Source: Candidatus Nomurabacteria bacterium
GTDB lineage: Bacteria > Patescibacteriota > Minisyncoccia > Phycocordibacterales > UBA5272
NCBI GenBank assembly: GCA_037130925.1
Contig: JBAXSC010000001.1
Coordinates: forward strand, 176,182-240,181
DNA: 64,000 nucleotides
Direction of reading: 5' to 3'
Part shown: positions 4,500 to 60,965 of the stretch, piece after piece
Numbering within the stretch: position 1 is the first letter of the stretch
How the letters are laid out: each line of letters opens with the position of its first letter
Position numbers and translations under genes: made by a program
Notes under the pieces: generated by a model
Told to the model about the DNA's origin: nothing
The model's input: the letters and a program-made list of their open reading frames with translations, nothing else
Databases searched by the model: none

Positions 4500-4877
4500 A
4501 TGACACCAAAATTAAAAAATTTAACAATCTGTGAAAATGTTATTATTGCACAAAACAAAACAAGAAGTTATATTAATATTTTTGATAGAGTAAAATCTGA
4601 TTTGCCGGTTGTTTTTCCAAAATTTTACATAGTTTCATCAATTGAAAGTGATCAAGAAAGTGAAAAGTATATTGAAAAAATAGAAATAATAGATCCTGAT
4701 GGAAATGTTTTATCTAAGATCGAAGGTGATACACAAACTGAATTATATAAAAGTCATTTTATATGTCAATTTAATAATATAAATTTTCAAAAATCTGGAA
4801 AGTATTTAGTTAGAGTTTATATTAATGGTAGTGAAATAACAAATAGTAATGAATCTTTTGTTGTTGAAAATATATAA
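4500..4877 (+). CDS. hypothetical protein (small, soluble)
   Basis: 125-aa ORF wedged between dnaK and dnaJ. Confidence 0.4.
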   Translation: MTPKLKNLTICENVIIAQNKTRSYINIFDRVKSDLPVVFPKFYIVSSIESDQESEKYIEKIEIIDPDGNVLSKIEGDTQTELYKSHFICQFNNINFQKSGKYLVRVYINGSEITNSNESFVVENI

Positions 4878-4881
4878 AAAT

Positions 4882-5286
4882 ATGAACTCTGTTGAAAGCA
4901 AAATTTTTTATAATACTGAATCTAACATTATTGATGTTAGTAATGATGGTGATTATAATAAAAAGCCATTATCAACAAACGATTTAATTAATATTTTAAT
5001 TAAAAAAGTAGACGAAACAACTGTAACATCAAATAAAGCAGAAAAAATTTCTAAAGATGCTTATAATTTAACTTTATTTGGTTTTCTTGTGCTTTTGGTT
5101 ATGGTTGCAGGATTGATTCTTTCCGGGTATTCTATAGTACAACAGTCTTCTCATAATGAAAATGATTATAATAATAAGATTTTTGAATACGATAGTAAAA
5201 TTTCTAAAAATGAAAATGACATTAAAAATTTAAAGATATGTTTATCTATTAGTAAATGGTTAAATCCAAAATGTTTAGATAATTAA
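4882..5286 (+). CDS. hypothetical membrane protein (one central TM segment)
   Basis: ATG at 4882 follows the stop of the previous gene. Hydrophobic stretch LFGFLVLLVMVAGLILSGY. Confidence 0.4.
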   Translation: MNSVESKIFYNTESNIIDVSNDGDYNKKPLSTNDLINILIKKVDETTVTSNKAEKISKDAYNLTLFGFLVLLVMVAGLILSGYSIVQQSSHNENDYNNKIFEYDSKISKNENDIKNLKICLSISKWLNPKCLDN

Positions 5287-5302
5287 ATTATAAAATAAAA
5301 AT

Positions 5303-5584
5303 ATGAAAACAAAAAAAGAATTAGAAGGAAAAGTTTGGTATAGAATATTAAAAGTTTTATTTATTATTTTATTTATTTTTTCAATTATGGGAATTTTAGT
5401 TTTTTCATATAATGATTCTCACAATGTTTTATATTATAAAGGATATATATTGTCTAATAGTATGGATTATATAAAAGATTCATTTGATTTAATAACTCTT
5501 TCAATTATCAATATATGTTTATTTATATTAATTAGAAATACTTTCTATTATATTGTTTTAGGGAAATTTAGACCAAAAGATTAA
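5303..5584 (+). CDS. hypothetical small membrane protein (2 TM)
   Basis: 93-aa ORF with two hydrophobic segments. Confidence 0.4.
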
Positions 5585-5588
5585 AATT

Positions 5589-6710
5589 ATGTCACAAAAA
5601 AATTATTACGAATTATTGGGAGTTTCAAAATCGGCAAGTAAAGAAGAAATTAAAAAAGCTTTTTATAAACTTGCGTCTAAATATCATCCAGATAAAAAAG
5701 GTGGTGATGAAGCAAAATTCAAAGAGGTAAATGAAGCTTACCAAGTTCTTTCTAATGATCAAAAAAGAAAAGAGTACGATACATATGGACAAACATTTTC
5801 TGGAGCAGGATCAAATGGTCGAAGTGGATTTGGACAGCAGCAAGGTCAAGGATTCGGTGGATTTGATTTCTCTGGATTTCAAGGATTCAATCAAGGAGAT
5901 TTTCAAGACATGGATTTTGATTTAGGTGATATTTTCGGAGAAATGTTTGGAGGTGGTGGATTTGGTGGACAGCAAAGAGAAAAGAGAGGTCGTGATATGT
6001 CTCTCGAAATTGATATTAATTTTGAAGAAGCAGTATTTGGAATTGAAAGAAATATTTTAATCTCTAAAATCTCAAAATGTAAGACCTGTACAGGTTCTGG
6101 AGCAAAAGTAGGTACGAGTATGGAAACTTGTCATAAATGCGCAGGAAAGGGCAAAATTCACGACGTGAAGCGTACTATATTCGGTGCTATGCAATCAGTG
6201 AAGACTTGTGATGAATGTAATGGAAAAGGTCAGGTTCCAAAAGAGAAATGTGAGACATGTAAAGGTAATGGAGTTTTGAATACAAAAGAAGATATTAAAA
6301 TTTCAATTCCAGCTGGAATAAATAATGGAGAAGTAATCAGAATGGGTGGAATGGGTGAAGCTGTAAAAGATGGTAAAGCTGGAGATCTCTATATTAAAAT
6401 TTTTGTAAAAGCACACAAGATTTGGAAGAGAGAAGGAAATGATCTTGTGATGAATCATGATATAAAATTATCTGATGCATTACTCGGAGCAAAGCATATC
6501 ATCTCAACGCTTGATGGAAATGTAGAAGTTATAATTCCTATCGGAGCTCATGCGAATGATATTTTGAGGGTGAAAGGAAGAGGTGTGCCTCATACTTCGA
6601 ATCCAAAAGTTAGGGGAGATATTTTAATTAAATTAAATATTCAAATTCCTAAAAAACTTTCGAGAAAAGCAGAAGAATTAGTAAATAAATTAAAAGAAGA
6701 AGGTCTCTAA
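5589..6710 (+). CDS. dnaJ: molecular chaperone DnaJ
   Basis: J-domain with HPD (…YHPDKK…), G/F-rich linker, four CxxCxGxG zinc-finger repeats, C-terminal domains. Confidence 0.95.
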
Positions 6711-7139: not shown

Positions 7140-7210
7140 TACCTGATCGTCTAATGGTAGGACAACAGTTTCTGGCACTGTTAATTGGGGTTCGAATCCC
7201 TATCGGGTAG
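7140..7210 (+). tRNA. tRNA-Gln (anticodon CTG)
   Basis: Manually folded cloverleaf. Acceptor TACCTGA/TCGGGTA (one G·U), D-arm GTCT/GGAC, anticodon stem ACAGT/ACTGT with loop TTCTGGC, T-arm TGGGG-TTCGAAT-CCCTA. No encoded CCA. -10 TATAAT at 7124-7129. Confidence 0.75.
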
Positions 7211-12168: not shown

Positions 12169-13110
12169 TTAGTTTTTAACTATTACTGTAGTACCTACTT
12201 CTGTCCAAGAGTAGAGCTTTTCTGCCTCTTCTGGGCTCAAATTTACGCATCCATGAGACCATTGTGAGCCAAAGCTATTATGCCAATAGGCTCCGTGTAT
12301 TGCCGCACCGCTACCTGTAAAATACATTGTCCAAGGTACGCCAGGTAGATCATAATATTGATCTGACACATCAGGGAGAGGGCCTTGCATATATCTGCTT
12401 GGAGTTTTACTGAAAATATGAAATGTGCCGACAGGTGTTGGTAGATCATCTAATCCAGAAGAGATGAGTGTTTCCACAAATAATTTGTCTCCTTCATAAG
12501 CGTATAATTTTTGCTCAGTTAGATTTACAATAATTTTTTTATTAGTTACTATTTTATTTGCGTCGCTGATAGAGGATTTTTCTTTCAAGCTATTTATTAA
12601 TTCTAAATAATCTGATGATATATACCAATCTTTCGCGGTTCTTTCTGGATATCTGACCCACTCACTAAAAACAATGTGATACCAAGATATCCCGTCGGCC
12701 TGTGTTACTTCTCCGTCTGTCTCGAGTACCATTTCGTCACGAAGACTTGCGATAGTAGGGCAATTTAATCCTGGACAAGCTCTTGCTCTTACACAATCTC
12801 CATCAAAATGTATAGAACAACTATTTATTATTTTTACATATTGGTTATTAGTAGTTGTTACACCATTTGTATCTGTTGTCGAAGATGATGTCTGTGTCAA
12901 AGAAATAGGTGAGATATTTGTAGAAATTAATTTATCTAAATATTTATAATCAGAATAAATATTATCAGAAGTATTTTGAATATTTTGTTTTAAAGTTTTT
13001 TCTTTATTTAGGCTTAAAAAATATCCAATCAATATAAAAAGTAAAATTATTAGTAATGTTGTATTTAAAAAATGATAATTTACTTTTATTTGTTTATTCT
13101 TTATATTCAT
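12169..13110 (-). CDS. L,D-transpeptidase (YkuD domain) with N-terminal membrane anchor
   Basis: Catalytic …HGCVNLSPEEAEKLYSW… motif. Confidence 0.85.
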   Translation of the reverse strand: MNIKNKQIKVNYHFLNTTLLIILLFILIGYFLSLNKEKTLKQNIQNTSDNIYSDYKYLDKLISTNISPISLTQTSSSTTDTNGVTTTNNQYVKIINSCSIHFDGDCVRARACPGLNCPTIASLRDEMVLETDGEVTQADGISWYHIVFSEWVRYPERTAKDWYISSDYLELINSLKEKSSISDANKIVTNKKIIVNLTEQKLYAYEGDKLFVETLISSGLDDLPTPVGTFHIFSKTPSRYMQGPLPDVSDQYYDLPGVPWTMYFTGSGAAIHGAYWHNSFGSQWSHGCVNLSPEEAEKLYSWTEVGTTVIVKN

Positions 13111-13159
13111 GCATTTATTGTAGCATTTAAAAGTGTTAAGTCTCTTAAATCCTTATTTA

Positions 13160-13188
13160 TTGACTTTATTTAGATAATATATTATTAT
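13160..13188 (+). promoter_or_regulatory. sigma70 promoter TTGACT-N17-TATTAT (copy A of the duplicated upstream module)
   Basis: TTGACT 13160-13165, TATTAT 13183-13188. Identical architecture at 13927-13955. Confidence 0.55.
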
Positions 13189-13321
13189 CTAAATAGGGGT
13201 TCTTTGTAGATTTTTTGATTAAATTAATAGCTTTTTGGTGGATTATTTTTACTTTTCTGAATACAGGAAAATAGAAATAATTCACTAAATATTTTATTAA
13301 CTATTAAATTTAAATTAAAAA
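13189..13321 (+). promoter_or_regulatory. conserved 5' leader of about 130 nt (copy A), candidate cis-regulatory RNA
   Basis: Roughly 85% identical to 13956-14081, whereas the downstream CDSs are only weakly similar. Confidence 0.45.
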
Positions 13322-13861
13322 ATGAACAAACAGGAAAAAGTGTCAATTTCAAAAAAAGAGATTAGAAAAAAGAAATTCGATTTAGGTATCTCATTGGTAG
13401 GCTTTATTGCTATTTTTATAATTACTTACTTTCTTTTTGAGTGGTATTTTAAATTTAAATTTCAAGAATTTTGGAGTTTAAGTTTAAAAGAAACGGTTAT
13501 TAAAGATAAAAAGTTTTTAATACCTATTATATTTTCTTATATTTTAATTTGTATAAATTTGTATTCTGTATTGGATATAATTGATAAGATTAAAGATTTA
13601 AGAAAAAAGGAAAAATATAAAATAGTCGTAGAGAATTATTCTGTATTAGATCGTATCTTATTATCCTTTGCTTTAAATCTGGTAGTCACGTTTGCAATAT
13701 CATTAGCGGGCATTGTTGTCGGAACAGTAAATGGTCTTCGTAATGGTTTTGTTTTTGTGGGACCTCTAACTTTCTTTTTCAATTGGGGTTTATTTATAGG
13801 ATTATACGCAGGTTTGGTGTATGGTGTGTATAAGTTATTTGGTAAACCTAAACAAAAATAA
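13322..13861 (+). CDS. hypothetical multi-pass membrane protein (paralog A)
   Basis: 179 aa, 4 TM segments. Weak similarity to 14082-14561 (FKFQEFWSLSLKETVIKDKKF vs FKLQEFWDLKLRYTTIRDSWF). Confidence 0.5.
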   Translation: MNKQEKVSISKKEIRKKKFDLGISLVGFIAIFIITYFLFEWYFKFKFQEFWSLSLKETVIKDKKFLIPIIFSYILICINLYSVLDIIDKIKDLRKKEKYKIVVENYSVLDRILLSFALNLVVTFAISLAGIVVGTVNGLRNGFVFVGPLTFFFNWGLFIGLYAGLVYGVYKLFGKPKQK

Positions 13862-13884
13862 TTGAAAATATTTTTTAAAATTAA

Positions 13885-13918
13885 AAAACCGGTCTTTATG
13901 ACCGGTTTCTTGTTTTAT
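13885..13918 (+). terminator. rho-independent terminator
   Basis: AACCGGTC-tttat-GACCGGTT perfect stem followed by a T-run. Confidence 0.7.
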
Positions 13919-13926
13919 TACTTTTA

Positions 13927-13955
13927 TTGACTTAATATTTTGAATATATTATTAT
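13927..13955 (+). promoter_or_regulatory. sigma70 promoter TTGACT-N17-TATTAT (copy B)
   Basis: Duplicate of the 13160 promoter. Confidence 0.55.
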
Positions 13956-14081
13956 CTAGCTTGAATGGTTCTTTGTAAGTCTTTTGATTAAATCAATAGT
14001 TTTTTGGTGGATTATTTTTGTTTTGCTAAATATAGAAAAATAGAAATAATTCACTAATTATTAACTATTAATTTAAACAAA
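13956..14081 (+). promoter_or_regulatory. conserved 5' leader of about 125 nt (copy B)
   Basis: See copy A at 13189-13321. Confidence 0.45.
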
Positions 14082-14561
14082 ATGGAAAAGGAACAAAAAA
14101 ATGAAACTAGTTTATTTACGGAAATGCTGATATTAATTGATCTAATTTTATTAAATTGTGTGGCAATTAGTTATTATTTTATTTTTAAATTACAAGAGTT
14201 TTGGGATTTAAAATTAAGATATACAACGATTCGAGACAGTTGGTTTTTTTTAAATTTTATTATTTTTTATTTTTTAATTAATATTACTTTTTATTTTATA
14301 ATAAAGGTATATGGATTAATAAAATTTAAATTAAACAAAGAAGAATATGAAGATTTTATTGATTCAGCAAAGCTAACACTTTTTATGGTAAGTGCTTTGA
14401 GTTTTATTATGGGTATGATTATAGGTATTATTTTAGGAATAATGCTTAGCTTTTTTTACAGTTTCTCTATAATATTTTTTATATTATGGGGAATGGTAAT
14501 AGGCTTGATAATCGGATCTGTGGCAGGTCTGATATTGTCTTTTAAAGAGAATAATATTTGA
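14082..14561 (+). CDS. hypothetical multi-pass membrane protein (paralog B)
   Basis: 159 aa, 4 TM segments. Confidence 0.5.
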   Translation: MEKEQKNETSLFTEMLILIDLILLNCVAISYYFIFKLQEFWDLKLRYTTIRDSWFFLNFIIFYFLINITFYFIIKVYGLIKFKLNKEEYEDFIDSAKLTLFMVSALSFIMGMIIGIILGIMLSFFYSFSIIFFILWGMVIGLIIGSVAGLILSFKENNI

Positions 14562-14573
14562 TTTTATTTTTAA

Positions 14574-14606
14574 AAACCGGTCTTCGTGACCGGTTTTGTT
14601 TTTTTA
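14574..14606. terminator. bidirectional rho-independent terminator
   Basis: AAACCGGTC-ttcgt-GACCGGTTT with T-runs. Same hairpin family as 13885. Confidence 0.7.
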
Positions 14607-14610
14607 TATT

Positions 14611-15267
14611 TTAATTATATTCTAAATATTCTCCCTCTGAAATAATCTCTACTTCTCCATCAATTATTTTTAATGCTGAATTATCATCGAGTGCGTATAC
14701 TTTCTTTTGAATAGTATCTGCTATATTTTTAATATTTTCTTCTCTTGCTAGAGAAAAGTAAGAATTATTTAAATGTGGTAGAAAATAAAAATCAGTATAA
14801 TTTAATGCTGGAATGTCGCTATCTTTTTCAAGATCTTCATTATATATAAGTTTAGATATTTCAATATTTAAATTTGGATTTGTTATCATGCTTCCAGCAG
14901 AAACTCCAACATAAACTTTTATTTTTAATAATTCAGGAAGAAGATCGGCGAGTCCAGATTTATTTACCCATTCCATTAAATAATAAGTATTTCCTCCTTC
15001 AAAAAATATCACATCAGCTTCTTCGATTTGTGGTCTCCAAATGTTTTCTGGTACAGCAGAAATGTCAGTAATACTAATAGATTTGAGATTTAATTTATAT
15101 AAATTATTTAAATCATTTATAAGCCAGCTTTTATCTCCTGTTTCAATATTTGACGCTGTAGGGATAAATACAAGGGAAGTATCTTCTGGATTTTTTCCAG
15201 CTAATTCAAATAATGCTTTTGCTATTGATTGATTTGTTATTCCACTGGAAGTTAGTAGTAATTTCAT
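14611..15267 (-). CDS. peptidase E-like (family S51, dipeptidase E/cyanophycinase-like)
   Basis: …ADVIFFEGGNTYYLM…KVYVGVSAGSMIT… aligns with the E. coli PepE core including the GxSAG serine. Confidence 0.7.
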   Translation of the reverse strand: MKLLLTSSGITNQSIAKALFELAGKNPEDTSLVFIPTASNIETGDKSWLINDLNNLYKLNLKSISITDISAVPENIWRPQIEEADVIFFEGGNTYYLMEWVNKSGLADLLPELLKIKVYVGVSAGSMITNPNLNIEISKLIYNEDLEKDSDIPALNYTDFYFLPHLNNSYFSLAREENIKNIADTIQKKVYALDDNSALKIIDGEVEIISEGEYLEYN

Positions 15268-15348
15268 AAATATTTATTAAATAATATTTTTAGATTATAT
15301 CATTTTAAAAATATTAACAAACCAGTTTTTTTATGTCGGTTTTGTTTT

Positions 15349-15847: not shown

Positions 15848-15921
15848 TGGCTGCCAGACCTGGGATCGAACCAAGATTCACAGCTTCAAAGGCTGCTGTC
15901 CTACCATTAGACGATCTGGCA
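15848..15921 (-). tRNA. tRNA-Gln (anticodon TTG), CCA encoded
   Basis: Reverse complement folds as TGCCAGA…TCTGGCA-G-CCA. Anticodon loop CTTTGAA. D-arm identical to tRNA-Gln(CTG). Confidence 0.85.
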
Positions 15922-22236: not shown

Positions 22237-22252
22237 TTCAAATTAAATATAC

Positions 22253-22280
22253 TTGACAAATAATATTAAAAGAGTATAGT
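22253..22280 (+). promoter_or_regulatory. sigma70 promoter TTGACA-N16-TATAGT (leader module copy R2)
   Basis: TTGACAAAT 22253-22261, TATAGT 22275-22280. Confidence 0.6.
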
Positions 22281-22294
22281 GATTTATAGATAAA

Positions 22295-22328
22295 TTTTGT
22301 TCTTTTAAATTAAAATTAAGAACAAATT
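22295..22328 (+). promoter_or_regulatory. conserved leader inverted repeat TTTTGTTCTTTT…AAGAACAAA (copy R2)
   Basis: Aligns with the copies at 860 and 35508. Confidence 0.5.
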
Positions 22329-22370
22329 TAAATTTCTAAAAATATTTTTTAATTATTCAAATTTTAAACA

Positions 22371-22910
22371 ATGAATAGCAATTTATCAATTTACAAAGAT
22401 GGTGAAAAAATCACAGGTAATGAACATGTAATTAAAACAGAAGTTATTGCAGGAGCTACCTGCTATTTTATCTCAGAACTTTGTTTTAAAGTTTCTACTG
22501 AAGATCTTGTATTGTTACAAGATAATACTGAAGCAATTAATGTTTTTAGTAAACTTGGAGATAGAGAAGAAAATGTGTTAAATGAATGGCCAAAAGCAAA
22601 AATACTTCCAAATTGGATTTATTTTGTAAAAAAAGGAAAACACATTTCTAGTAACGAAGTAGAAAAACTTTATGAAGAAATCATGCTGAGAGTAGAATTA
22701 AATGTTATTGCAGCATTTAATTCAAAATATCCAGAATTTCATAAAAGTGTCCGAAATGGGATTCAAATAAAAAATTCTAAAGGTGACTTCTGTTCTGCTG
22801 TTTTTGGTTGCTGGCCAGAAGATTCAAGTGTTCATATTGAGCTGTTACATTTACATGATAGTGAATATGAGTGGGGATTTTATTGGTGGTTTCCTGGGTT
22901 TATTAAGTAG
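22371..22910 (+). CDS. hypothetical protein (Trp/Phe-rich C-terminus)
   Basis: 179-aa ORF driven by the R-module. Confidence 0.45.
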   Translation: MNSNLSIYKDGEKITGNEHVIKTEVIAGATCYFISELCFKVSTEDLVLLQDNTEAINVFSKLGDREENVLNEWPKAKILPNWIYFVKKGKHISSNEVEKLYEEIMLRVELNVIAAFNSKYPEFHKSVRNGIQIKNSKGDFCSAVFGCWPEDSSVHIELLHLHDSEYEWGFYWWFPGFIK

Positions 22911-26523: not shown

Positions 26524-26596
26524 GCCGAGATAGCTCAGTTGGTAGAGCATTTCCCTGAAGAGGAAGGGGTCGCCAGTTCGAGCCTGGCTCTCGGCA
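26524..26596 (+). tRNA. tRNA-Phe (anticodon GAA)
   Basis: GCCGAGATAGCTCAGTTGGTAGAGC…anticodon loop CTGAAGA…GGTTCGAGCC…TCTCGGCA. Confidence 0.9.
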
Positions 26597-27010: not shown

Positions 27011-27082
27011 TGCTCTCGGCAGGAATCGAACCCACAAACCCTCCTTAGGACGGAGGAGTTATATCCATTTAACTACGAGAGC
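27011..27082 (-). tRNA. tRNA-Arg (anticodon CCT)
   Basis: Reverse complement GCTCTCG-TA-GTTA…TAAC…CCTCC-GTCCTAA-GGAGG…GTGGG-TTCGATT-CCTGC-CGAGAGC-A. Confidence 0.75.
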
Positions 27083-35409: not shown

Positions 35410-35465
35410 ATATTTAAATAGATATTAATAAGCTGATTTTATCATATTAGTTTTTTGAAATATAC

Positions 35466-35493
35466 TTGACAAATTAGTAAATAAGAGTATAAT
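35466..35493 (+). promoter_or_regulatory. sigma70 promoter TTGACA-N16-TATAAT (leader module copy R3)
   Basis: TTGACAAAT 35466-35474, TATAAT 35488-35493. Confidence 0.65.
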
Positions 35494-35507
35494 AATATAT
35501 AGTTAAA

Positions 35508-35542
35508 TTTTGTTCTTTAAAATCAAAAAATTAAGAACAAAA
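35508..35542 (+). promoter_or_regulatory. conserved leader inverted repeat TTTTGTTCTT-N15-AAGAACAAAA (copy R3)
   Basis: Perfect 10-bp arms. Confidence 0.5.
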
Positions 35543-35588
35543 TTAAATTTCTAAAACAATATTTTAATATTTTTAAATTTTATTCAAA

Positions 35589-36127
35589 ATGAACACAAAT
35601 TCAAAACGTTGGATCAAAAACGGTCGTATTTATTTTTCAGTAATAGGCCTGGGTCTTACAGCTGAAAAGTGGAAAACAAGGCTTAAAAAAATGGTCATAA
35701 AATTACCAATTCCGCAGATAAACTTCTTACAAAATCAGATTATAATGAAAATCATAGACTAGTACCTGGAAAAGAGTATCATTTAGTGTTGGTTGAAAAT
35801 AATAAAATGGGAAAAGATTTTAAATTTACAGATGAGAACTTAAAAACTTTCTCTATAAAAGAGTTTGGTGAAAGTTCTGTATCGGAATTGAAAGGTGAAT
35901 TAGCCTTACTTATTCGTGAAAAATTTTCTAATGAAGAATTGGAAGAGATGGGTTTAGCTTATATAGCTGTACTTCATAAACCAATTATTTCTTTTTCCGT
36001 TGATAATTCTGCAGGTACTCTTCGTTCTGGTCAAAATATTGGGTATTCTTTAATAGATTCTTATTATGATATCAGGTATGATGACTGGGTTATTGACCGT
36101 GGTTCTTTTGCTTTTTTGGTAAATTAA
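35589..36127 (+). pseudogene. frameshifted paralog of the 939-1631 gene (or a programmed frameshift). ORF-a 35589-35762 continues in the +2 frame as 35687-36127.
   Basis: Frame-0 product …MVIKLPIPQ… and frame-2 product …YNENHRLVPGKEYH… both align to the single R1 protein (…GIKLPELFPY…KNENGILVPGKWEY…). Confidence 0.45.
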
Positions 36128-46945: not shown

Positions 46946-47620
46946 ATGAAAAATAGATTTGAAAAAGATTTAAGAGATTATAATGATAAGCTTGTAATGC
47001 TAAATGCTTGTAATGAAACATTAAGATTGGTAATGGCTTTTGAATTTAAAAAAATATATAAAAAAGATTTAAAGGTTATAGAATTGGGTTGTGGAGAAGG
47101 ATTTTCTATTAAACCTTTACTTGAAAACACAGATTCAAATTTTGATTTGCTCGACGCTTCTAAAGAAATGATTGCTTCAAATAAGAAAAATCTTAAGAAA
47201 TTTAGTAATAGATTAAATTATATTTGTGAAGACGCTTTAGATTACTTAAAAAAATCAAACACTTATAATGTAGTTCTTTCTTCTTGGACTATTCATAATT
47301 TTGATAAAAAAGATCGCCTCGAACTTTTTAAAGAAATTTATAATAAGTTATCAAAAAATGGATATTTTATTTTAATGGATAAAGTTTATCCAGATTCTGA
47401 AAAAACAGCTAAAAGTTTATTAGATTTACAATTAAAGAGATATAAATATTTACCAAATCAAGTCTGTAAAGATATAACAGAGCATGAAATAGAAGATTTT
47501 TCTAAAGACTTTAGAATTTCTCAATCAAACCTAATCAAAACACTCAAACTTATAGGTTTTAAAGATTTAACTATAGTAGATAGAGTGGAAAGGGATATAG
47601 TGTTGGTTGCAAAGAAATAA
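46946..47620 (+). CDS. class I SAM-dependent methyltransferase
   Basis: Motif I VIELGCGEGFSI. Rossmann-like motif spacing. Confidence 0.7.
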   Translation: MKNRFEKDLRDYNDKLVMLNACNETLRLVMAFEFKKIYKKDLKVIELGCGEGFSIKPLLENTDSNFDLLDASKEMIASNKKNLKKFSNRLNYICEDALDYLKKSNTYNVVLSSWTIHNFDKKDRLELFKEIYNKLSKNGYFILMDKVYPDSEKTAKSLLDLQLKRYKYLPNQVCKDITEHEIEDFSKDFRISQSNLIKTLKLIGFKDLTIVDRVERDIVLVAKK

Positions 47621-49076: not shown

Positions 49077-49157
49077 TGCCGAAGGTGGGACTTGAACCCA
49101 CAAGCCGTAAGGCATGCGATTTTGAGTCGCACGTGTATACCATTCCACCACTTCGGC
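49077..49157 (-). tRNA. tRNA-Leu (anticodon CAA), type II with long variable arm
   Basis: Reverse complement GCCGAAG…anticodon loop CTCAAAA…variable arm TGCCTTACGGCTT…GTGGG-TTCAAGT-CCCAC-CTTCGGC-A. Confidence 0.8.
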
Positions 49158-60108: not shown

Positions 60109-60189
60109 TGCCCAGGGCGAGACTCGAACTCGCAAGCCGTGAGGCAAAAGATTTTAAGTCTTTCGTGTATACCATTCCACCACCTGGGC
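60109..60189 (-). tRNA. tRNA-Leu (anticodon TAA), type II
   Basis: Reverse complement GCCCAGG…anticodon loop CTTAAAA…variable arm…GAGTT-CGAGTCT…CCTGGGC-A. Near-paralog of tRNA-Leu(CAA). Confidence 0.8.
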
Positions 60190-60292: not shown

Positions 60293-60366
60293 GGTGCGGT
60301 GGCGAAGTGGCCTAACGCTGCGGTTTGCAAAACCGCCATTCGCGGGTTCGACTCCCGCCCGCACCT
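60293..60366 (+). tRNA. tRNA-Cys (anticodon GCA)
   Basis: GGTGCGG…anticodon loop TTGCAAA…GCGGG-TTCGACT-CCCGC-CCGCACC-T. Confidence 0.85.
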
Positions 60367-60892: not shown

Positions 60893-60965
60893 GGGCCCTT
60901 AGCTCATTTGGTAGAGCGCCGGTTTTGCACTCCGGAGGTGAGCGGTTCGAATCCGCTAGGGTCCA
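60893..60965 (+). tRNA. tRNA-Ala (anticodon TGC)
   Basis: GGGCCCT…TTTGCAC loop…AGCGG-TTCGAAT-CCGCT-AGGGTCC-A. G3:U70 identity pair present. Confidence 0.85.

Follow-up and report, generated by a model that had tools for sequence, protein, structure and literature searches.

A rod-shaped leader RNA in front of orphan membrane and secreted protein genes in Paceibacteria

A number of bacterial mRNAs begin with a long, structured leader. RNase III processes stem-loops in the 5′ untranslated region (UTR) of adhE, rnc, and pnp of Escherichia coli and of the N gene of phage lambda, and in the adhE and lambda N leaders cleavage relieves occlusion of the initiation region. In type I toxin mRNAs (hok with its fold-back inhibition, tisB, zorO, and aapA1) a long leader folds onto the initiation region; these loci encode membrane proteins, are often tandemly duplicated, and have a UTR that is better conserved than expected. 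Correia repeat enclosed elements (CREE) and other hairpins of miniature inverted-repeat transposable elements (MITEs) in Neisseria 5′ UTRs are palindromic elements of about 100–150 nt which can carry a promoter and form a long mRNA hairpin, and hairpins of the CREE type are RNase III substrates. The upstream homology box (UHB) of the Borrelia erp/ospE/ospF/elp lipoprotein genes is a conserved promoter and 5′ region common to divergent or unrelated surface protein genes and is thought to serve both co-regulation and recombination. Riboswitches and other cis-regulatory leaders in Rfam share the position in the 5′ UTR and a conservation above that of the gene body. Here we describe a rod-shaped leader RNA (rod leader) which precedes two tandem membrane protein genes (ORF1 and ORF2, WCO35_01085 and WCO35_01090; ORF, open reading frame) in a stretch of 64 kb, the window, from a Candidatus Nomurabacteria metagenome-assembled genome (MAG), and which stands in front of unrelated genes in other Paceibacteria.

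The rod leader belongs to none of these systems; in its proposed working it resembles start-occluding hairpins and type I toxin leaders, and in its distribution the Borrelia UHB. With the RNase III-processed leaders it has in common a long duplex (over 20 bp) in the 5′ UTR close to the start site, but there is no sequence relationship, the described leaders act on Shine-Dalgarno (SD)-dependent initiation, and the rod leader recurs as a family before unrelated genes, with a cleavage that we infer. It shares with type I toxin mRNAs the long leader that folds onto the initiation region, and the window units share with those loci the membrane protein products, the tandem arrangement, and the well conserved UTR, whereas rod leader loci have heterogeneous products of 96–247 aa and showed neither an antisense RNA partner nor a match in Rfam. 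MITEs occur dispersed, in a wide range of contexts and in varying orientation, and are characterized by terminal inverted repeats and target duplications; the rod leader, similar to them in size and palindromic form, was found twice in 64 kb, keeps a constant distance to promoter and ATG, and has a sense-specific helix. The UHB is a protein-bound DNA operator and promoter region, whereas the conserved part of the rod leader is a covarying RNA helix. In contrast to riboswitches, the rod leader lacks a multi-helix aptamer and conserved nucleotides in junctions or loops, its downstream genes have no pathway in common, and it gave no Rfam match at the gathering score.

Structure and covariation of the leader

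The region from 13160 to 14597 (plus strand) of the window contains two head-to-tail transcription units, each composed of a promoter, a leader of about 125 nt, an ORF for a four-helix membrane protein, and a terminator (Table 1). This layout had been proposed in a preliminary description of the locus and is present in both units, each of which is an independent transcription unit. The same description gave the promoter and leader of the two units as about 85% identical over about 170 nt. This figure was slightly generous, as 134 of 166 columns (81%) between the -35 box and the ATG are identical, but the contrast between leader and gene is real. An ungapped core of 96 nt reaches 88% identity, the 50 nt located 5′ of the -35 box show the background level of 47%, and the conservation between the units thus starts at the -35 box. 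ORF1 and ORF2 share 52.5% DNA identity and 33% protein identity (158 aligned codons), in agreement with the patchy protein similarity noted before. Since pairwise BLASTP gave an E-value of 5e-11 with 38% identity over 65 aa, they are true but old paralogs. The core motifs of the leader were absent from the rest of the 64 kb (0 expected from shuffles), a covariance-model search of the window with filters off found only the two leader copies, and the exact 8-mer GTTCTTTG occurs twice in the window, in the 5′ boxes of the two leaders.

Both leaders are predicted to fold into a single rod, in which an inner hairpin of about 25 bp, with one 1x1 loop and a tetraloop in both window units, is enclosed by an AU-rich outer helix. 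In the window units, the outer helix pairs the 5′ part of the leader with the 20–25 nt just before the AUG. Minimum free energies (MFE) of -36.4 kcal/mol for unit 1 (z = -7.6 against dinucleotide shuffles) and -32.7 kcal/mol for unit 2 (z = -6.2) were calculated, and -23.6 and -21.3 kcal/mol, respectively, for the antisense strands. No other upstream region of the 65 genes analyzed in the window is as strongly folded as the two leaders (z-scores of -8.9 and -6.1 versus a median of -0.6). Other strongly folded upstream regions (at 46946, 43218, 23014, and 20371) turned out to be terminators of the preceding genes and contain no rod leaders.

The same rod was predicted for all nine distinct leaders that were collected from the window and from related genomes (see below), with z-scores of -5.5 to -9.0 and stabilities of -30 to -42 kcal/mol at 37 °C. 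In every member, the inner hairpin comprises 25–28 bp, interrupted by no more than one 1x1 loop, and has the duplex length (about 20 bp or more) of an RNase III substrate. In all nine leaders the sense strand folds 7–30 kcal/mol more stably than its reverse complement, because each helix holds 3–9 G·U pairs.

For the analysis of covariation, eight distinct inner hairpins were aligned over 26 pairs. In this alignment, 95.1% of the cells form standard pairs and compensatory changes are frequent, 14 of the 26 pairs being changed on both sides. None of 500 shuffles reached the observed covariation, pairing was 40–57% when the partners were slid by 1–3 columns, and RNAalifold agreed with this result. 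Unit 1 and its ortholog in the close relative L001 (synonymous divergence, dS = 0.52) are identical at 54 of 56 hairpin positions, and their two differences together make up a single compensatory pair (CUG/CAG to CUA/UAG). The differences between unit 2 and unit 1 likewise keep the pairing, e.g., CUG/CAG to CUA/UAG and A-U to G·U. In unit 2 of L007, in L029, and in L025, the arm sequences are different and the rod architecture is the same. The covariation together with the G·U asymmetry of the sense strand shows that selection acts neither on a plain DNA palindrome nor on an antisense RNA, and we are highly confident that the leader is a selected RNA structure of the sense strand. The view that the leader is more constrained than the gene body and acts in cis as an RNA was thereby upheld as far as a cis-located structured RNA is concerned, which is conserved at other loci and in other genera and shows compensatory base changes.

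The apical loop and the upper stem vary freely, and the conserved bases sit in the stem base, where UUUGGUGR-AUUAUUUU is paired with (G/A)AAAUAAU-UCACUAAA. This sequence is kept at 32 of 33 positions between the window, a Paceibacterota MAG, and L007, the exception being a change from G·U to A-U, and proteins common to the window genome and L007 are only 42–52% identical. A constraint of this kind, beyond that on structure, suggests that the stem base may be recognized by a sequence-specific partner.

A riboswitch, an attenuator, and a long operator had been considered for the leader initially, and none of them agrees with the rod. With respect to a riboswitch, the leader is a single near-perfect rod with its conserved bases inside the helix and a variable apical loop; multi-stem junctions, pseudoknots, and conserved unpaired nucleotides were not found in the rod leaders, and the downstream genes, which are unrelated orphans, share no pathway and no metabolic or transport theme. 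For an attenuator, a U-tract should follow the hairpin directly, and an alternative antiterminator should be present. Instead, it is followed by AAAUAUUUUAUUAAC or a similar sequence and the stem is extended by U-A pairs, and a terminator scan of the two-unit region identified the two 3′ terminators and one site inside ORF2, none in the leaders. A long operator is at odds with an arm spacing that varies by 6 nt or more, with the covariation of the arms, and with the 3–9 G·U pairs that make the helix sense-specific. A more specific form of the latter idea, in which a dimeric transcription factor would bind the inverted repeat as its DNA operator and the repeat, lying immediately 3′ of the transcription start, would serve as a roadblock repressor site, could build on the half-sites GTGGATTATTT and GTGAATTATTT, which are conserved across genera, and on a TrmB-like regulator gene with a helix-turn-helix motif, which is located together with a HAD-like hydrolase gene between two leader-bearing units of the Paceibacterota MAG (L013 709-1533, minus strand). 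We regard it as highly improbable, since the hairpin is 46–56 nt long with a variable distance between the arms, compensatory changes preserve the self-complementarity of the spacer, the helix but not the half-site sequence is retained in divergent members, and the G·U pairs correspond to A·C mismatches on the other strand. Moreover, domain annotation of the neighboring proteins revealed no regulator gene adjoining the window units.

It is barely credible that the conservation reflects a small peptide encoded in the leader, be it a leader peptide on the sense strand or a small protein on the antisense strand. A sense ORF of 19 codons with a TTG start is present in both units, but it lies in a different frame in the Paceibacterota copy, and of the seven codons in which the two units differ, six specify another amino acid. 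An antisense ORF (MNYF...KIIHQ) shared by the window units and the Paceibacterota copy has only 11 codons in L007 and L009, where a stop codon truncates it. Finally, a mini-ORF runs over the 5′ box in L025 (AUG GUU CUU UGA, 12513-12524), L029 (AUG GUU CGU UGA, 13987-13998), and unit 2 (eight codons, 13965-13991), whereas its AUG is missing in unit 1, L001, the Paceibacterota leader, and unit 1 of L007. No small ORF on either strand is conserved in frame across the members, as frame, start, or length is broken in several of them.

Occurrence in relatives and genes behind the leader

A pattern scan of species-representative genomes identified the leader in the Candidatus Paceibacterota MAG JBAYHR01, and a metagenome scan added a third lineage (L007, L009, and L022) as well as further contigs of the first two lineages. 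L001 contains a single unit. A covariance model derived from the collected leaders revealed two divergent members, L029 (46 bits), located after the rpsI operon, and L025 (34 bits), located after two tRNA genes. Both came up by chance in loci fetched for a synteny walk through homologs of a deaminase encoded near the window units; synteny with the window was not kept around these homologs, and the covariance model found no leader in five further deaminase-homolog loci. These two were the additional leaders obtained from about 150 kb of related genomes, and both are promoter-proximal and immediately 5′ of an ORF. The rod architecture was thus found in four other Paceibacteria lineages, and the question of the preliminary description whether the leader exists in related genomes is answered by its presence in other genera in front of unrelated genes. 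Every member consists of a TTGAC[AT]-N17-TAnnnT promoter followed by the rod and by the ATG at a fixed distance. A GTTCTTTG box with at most one mismatch is located 10–14 nt after the promoter in all members except L001, whose box has degenerated.

Several other candidates were set aside. The marine contigs L006 (2661-2705), L011, L014, and L017 carry a perfect 18-bp palindrome (TTTGGTGAATTATTCTCA...TGAGAATAATTCACCAAA), which shares the arm sequence, occurs in another context, and gives a match on either strand. This palindrome is probably a bidirectional terminator without relation to the rod leader. L023 uses SD sequences, lacks the G·U asymmetry, and scored 27–38 bits on both strands. The matches of the metagenome scan in L008, L012, L016, L018, L020, L021, and L024 were judged to be due to chance. 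A scan of viral contigs gave no matches.

The genes downstream of the leader are mutually unrelated orphans, mostly for small membrane or secreted proteins. Besides the four-helix proteins of the window units, the products are a 96-aa membrane protein (L004), a 171-aa protein with signal peptide (L013), two-helix proteins of 134 and 108 aa (L007), a 130-aa protein unrelated to those of L007 (L009), and a 247-aa weakly trypsin-like protein (L025). Apart from this weak trypsin-like match, no Pfam family was assigned to the downstream products.

With Rfam 15 at the gathering threshold, only eight tRNAs were detected in the whole window. A permissive scan of 13100-14650 gave nothing above 27 bits, compared to thresholds of 40–150 bits, and its best E-values (0.07–0.3) belonged to miRNA-shaped hairpins and terminator-like small RNAs (sRNAs). 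The initial impression that the leader matches no recognizable riboswitch class therefore agrees with the Rfam result, and our literature searches revealed no description of the element. The rod leader is a new RNA family, though of a familiar kind, in Paceibacteria (Parcubacteria, Candidate Phyla Radiation, CPR), and it is probably a new gene-control element absent from the RNA family catalogue.

Hydrophobic products, tandem duplication, and a long folded leader which buries the start site in small stand-alone loci with quick turnover are also features of type I toxin-antitoxin systems. The units could accordingly be thought to encode toxic membrane proteins whose primary transcript is kept inert by a closed 5′ UTR until processing, as in hok, tisB, zorO, and aapA1. 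We consider this very unlikely. Type I toxins are single-helix peptides of less than 60 aa, whereas the products of the rod leader genes have 96–247 aa and include signal-peptide and trypsin-like proteins. We found neither a conserved promoter or terminator on the antisense strand nor a structured antisense RNA, and antisense folding is weak; on the minus strand, 13 promoter-like sites were present versus 16 expected from shuffles, and no conserved site reads into the leader. The weak Rfam matches to OrzO-P and ohsC are located at the terminator, with scores far short of the threshold.

Comparison of related strains shows that the genes behind the leader turn over quickly by replacement of whole genes and that leader and terminator form the fixed frame of a variable slot. 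L007 and L009 derive from the same species (97% identical DnaE). Behind their shared leader, homology breaks at ATG+7 and resumes at the terminator stem; between these breakpoints, L007 has two units (946 nt, 4714-5659) and L009 one unrelated gene (400 nt, reverse strand, 380-779). The segment 13917-15297 of the window, containing unit 2 and the gene for an S51 peptidase, is missing from L001, with the junction at the terminator (L001 4816-4867); relative to L001, it was either inserted or has been deleted from that genome. This segment is flanked on both sides by terminator sequence, the third copy of which, near 15318-15342, is degenerate. The Paceibacterota MAG contains two copies of the leader that show full identity over at least 117 nt and precede unrelated genes, and its contigs break inside the repeat.

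The breakpoints of L007 and L009, the junction in L001, and the identical leaders before unrelated genes in the Paceibacterota MAG would also fit an explanation in which the conserved promoter-leader and terminator mainly are a recombination handle, i.e., homology arms for swapping or inserting orphan cassettes which are conserved by repeated copying. As a replacement for an RNA function this is unlikely: copying alone leaves the compensatory changes, the G·U asymmetry, and the retention of the rod with different arm sequences unexplained. In addition, the hairpin of unit 1 shows two differences to that of the ortholog and about eight to that of unit 2. As it is closer to the ortholog than to its neighbor, the two units were not homogenized recently, which also leaves a recent gene conversion limited to the upstream region, as envisaged before, unsupported. 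Recombination at these sites is compatible with the explanation favored below and need not replace it. Two other mobile-element readings were rejected. A MITE or a repeat of the repetitive extragenic palindrome (REP) type does not fit an element with two copies in 64 kb, both located at the same place relative to promoter and ATG. An integron attC site has R''/R' core sites (RYYYAAC...GTTRRRY), is located 3′ of a promoterless cassette, and has an integrase nearby. Against such a site speak the absence of a GTTRRRY core (GTTCTTT does not fit), the presence of an own promoter and terminator in each unit, and the neighboring genes for a YkuD protein, the S51 peptidase, and the deaminase.

The proteins of the window units evolve fast while the leader is held. 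ORF1 and ORF2 had no match in Pfam or PADLOC, and a HMMER profile search of 1.84 billion representative proteins found only one ortholog and ORF2 to be related to ORF1; word-index searches likewise marked the proteins as orphans. AlphaFold predicted four long helices for ORF1 with a low confidence (pLDDT 59), too poor for a fold search. The ratio of nonsynonymous to synonymous substitutions (dN/dS) between the unit 1 ORF and its ortholog was 0.25, compared to 0.05–0.12 for housekeeping neighbors. This value shows that ORF1 is a real gene, with selection that, as estimated from this ortholog pair, is relaxed relative to the housekeeping neighbors yet purifying; diversifying selection on the coding regions, put forward in the preliminary description as an alternative, is thus unsupported. 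The comparison of ORF1 with ORF2 is saturated (dS 1.18).

Translation context and possible mechanism

Only one of the 65 window ORFs of at least 100 aa is preceded by an SD-like motif (GGAG, GAGG, AGGA, or AAGG at positions -20 to -4), and judging from these start regions the window genome appears to initiate translation without SD pairing. A Parcubacteria subgroup without anti-SD sequence has been described (PMC9297842). Because the genome uses no SD pairing, initiation should depend on an unstructured AU-rich start region. In many genes of the window, a -10-like box precedes the ATG by no more than about 20 nt, an arrangement that suggests very short leaders. An RNA thermometer of the ROSE or fourU type, in which a short hairpin of marginal stability masks an SD sequence, was rejected in view of the lack of SD sequences and of the stability of the rod at 37 °C.

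In six of the nine leaders (window units 1 and 2, L001, unit 2 of L007, L025, and L029), the start region, i.e., the AUG or the first codons, is predicted to be covered by the outer helix and the 5′ box (GGUUCUUUG). In unit 1, ACAAA in codons 2–4 is the predicted partner of the 3′ half of the box, UUUGU (13203-13207), and in unit 2 the box is predicted to pair with AAGGAA in codons 3–4. Beyond the start-codon region, no consistent partner of the 5′ box was found within the leader or elsewhere in the window. In unit 1 of L007 and in L009, it forms a separate hairpin at the very 5′ end. The mean pairing probability over positions -20 to +5 was 0.83 for unit 1, the highest value of the 65 genes, and unit 2 ranked 6th.

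Our best explanation, for and against which we see about equal weight, is translational occlusion by the leader with a factor-dependent release. A rod burying the region before the AUG would keep translation of the envelope proteins low, and a factor that recognizes or cuts the long duplex would release or tune expression. One candidate is RNase III, which could cut the inner hairpin and free the 3′ arm and the AUG: after such a cut, the 3′ outer arm would be left on a short AU-rich partner, from which it could dissociate to give a free start site. The other candidate is a clade-specific RNA-binding protein which would read the invariant G·U-containing stem base, with the same outcome. The result would be a coordinated post-transcriptional control of rapidly replaced envelope genes.

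Several observations weigh against this explanation. In the Paceibacterota leaders and in those of L007 unit 1 and L009, the outer helix is predicted to end 10–16 nt before the AUG, and because it falls short in these two lineages, occlusion of the start codon is not universal. The accessibility of the start region discriminates only weakly, as the remaining genes already have a median pairing probability of 0.52. Structure alone does not account for the strict conservation of the stem-base sequence, the family comprises only about six independent lineages, and the release step, whether by RNase III or by a protein, is one that we infer.

The rod might instead be a passive stabilizer of the mRNA or a processing signal against 5′-end-dependent decay that determines the steady-state level, with no switch and no effect on initiation. 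The high stability of the structures, the separate 5′-end hairpin formed by the 5′ box in L007 unit 1 and L009, and the lack of any sign of alternative, mutually exclusive structures are consistent with such a role. We nevertheless consider it quite unlikely, since the first 10–17 nt are single-stranded in most members and the invariant stem-base sequence suggests a specific partner. Stabilizing hairpins at the 5′ end, such as those of the ompA and ermC leaders, do not work with a single-stranded 5′ end.

The locus, its surroundings, and significance

The features of the two units are listed in Table 1. The terminator hairpin sequence of unit 1 recurs 3′ of unit 2, where the terminator is also positioned to end the convergent gene for the S51 peptidase (14611-15267, minus strand). 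On the other side, the two units are flanked by a divergent gene for a YkuD L,D-transpeptidase, and the deaminase gene is also among the neighbors.

Table 1. Features of the two rod leader units and their positions in the window.
Feature	Position	Strand	Basis
Unit 1 sigma-70-type promoter, TTGACT-N17-TATTAT	13160..13188	+	consensus scan, 10/12
Unit 1 leader RNA, 5′ UTR of about 126 nt, predicted single rod	13196..13321	+	fold; covariance model, 74.4 bits
Unit 1 5′ box, GGTTCTTTG	13198..13206	+	recurrence of the 8-mer GTTCTTTG
Unit 1 outer helix, 5′ arm	13210..13230	+	partner 13301-13323 in MFE and centroid structures
Unit 1 inner hairpin, stem base UUUGGUGGAUUAUUUU / GAAAUAAUUCACUAAA	13234..13289	+	18 bp + 1x1 loop + 7 bp, tetraloop AAUA
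Unit 1 outer helix, 3′ arm, about -21 to +2 of the start codon	13301..13323	+	MFE structure
ORF1, 179-aa membrane protein, four helices, orphan family	13322..13861	+	ORF list
Unit 1 intrinsic terminator, AAACCGGTC...GACCGGTTT plus T-run	13886..13908	+	terminator scan
Unit 2 promoter, TTGACT-N17-TATTAT, hexamers as in unit 1	13927..13955	+	promoter scan
Unit 2 leader RNA, about 117 nt, same rod architecture	13965..14081	+	fold; covariance model, 74.8 bits
Unit 2 5′ box, GGTTCTTTG	13967..13975	+	8-mer match
Unit 2 outer helix, 5′ arm	13982..14001	+	predicted fold
Unit 2 inner hairpin	14004..14057	+	21 bp + 1x1 loop + 3 bp
Unit 2 outer helix, 3′ arm, last base is the A of AUG	14063..14082	+	predicted fold
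ORF2, 159-aa membrane protein, paralog of ORF1	14082..14561	+	ORF list, protein comparison
Unit 2 terminator	14573..14597	+	terminator scan

Elsewhere in the window, a second pair of promoter-plus-leader modules is located at 22240-22380 and 35453-35600 (plus strand), with 86% identity over about 135 nt. The two modules share TTGACAAAT...AAGAGTATART, followed by a small hairpin (GTTCTTT-N12-AAGAAC) and by AAATTTCTAAAA, and precede ORFs of 179 aa (22371-22910) and 57 aa (35589-35762), both without Pfam match. The GTTCTTT box is common to these modules and the rod leader. The eight tRNA genes of the window are located at 7140-7210, 15851-15921, 26524-26596, 27011-27082, 49077-49157, 60109-60189, 60293-60366, and 60893-60965, three of them clustering at 60.1–61.0 kb. 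Homology between L001 and the window stops at the 3′ end of a tRNA gene (window 15851), and L001 5370-7412 contains an ORF of 368 aa and a ParB-like ORF (IGGHQR motif), which looks like an element integrated next to the tRNA gene.

The CPR, or Patescibacteria, account for a large share of bacterial diversity, and to our knowledge almost nothing is known of their gene regulation. Most of their small membrane and secreted proteins are unannotated orphans and likely tools of the host-attached lifestyle. The rod leader is not a new regulatory principle, and the family found so far is small. It is, however, an RNA element supported by covariation that marks a set of such orphan genes across genera, and it offers a handle on post-transcriptional control in a lineage that abandoned SD initiation. 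The 5′ box together with the stem base provides a sequence tag for finding more of these genes in metagenomes. In a far-reaching proposal, which we regard as rather doubtful, the promoter, rod leader, and terminator would be the fixed frame of a cassette-exchange system of the CPR, in which orphan genes for envelope and secreted proteins are swapped, duplicated, and inserted between start codon and terminator and every cassette comes under one clade-specific post-transcriptional regulator that reads the G·U-containing stem base. If true, cassette exchange would give strain-level surface variation in these episymbionts lacking SD pairing. The replacement of genes from the start codon to the terminator in itself indicates how envelope proteins could turn over rapidly.

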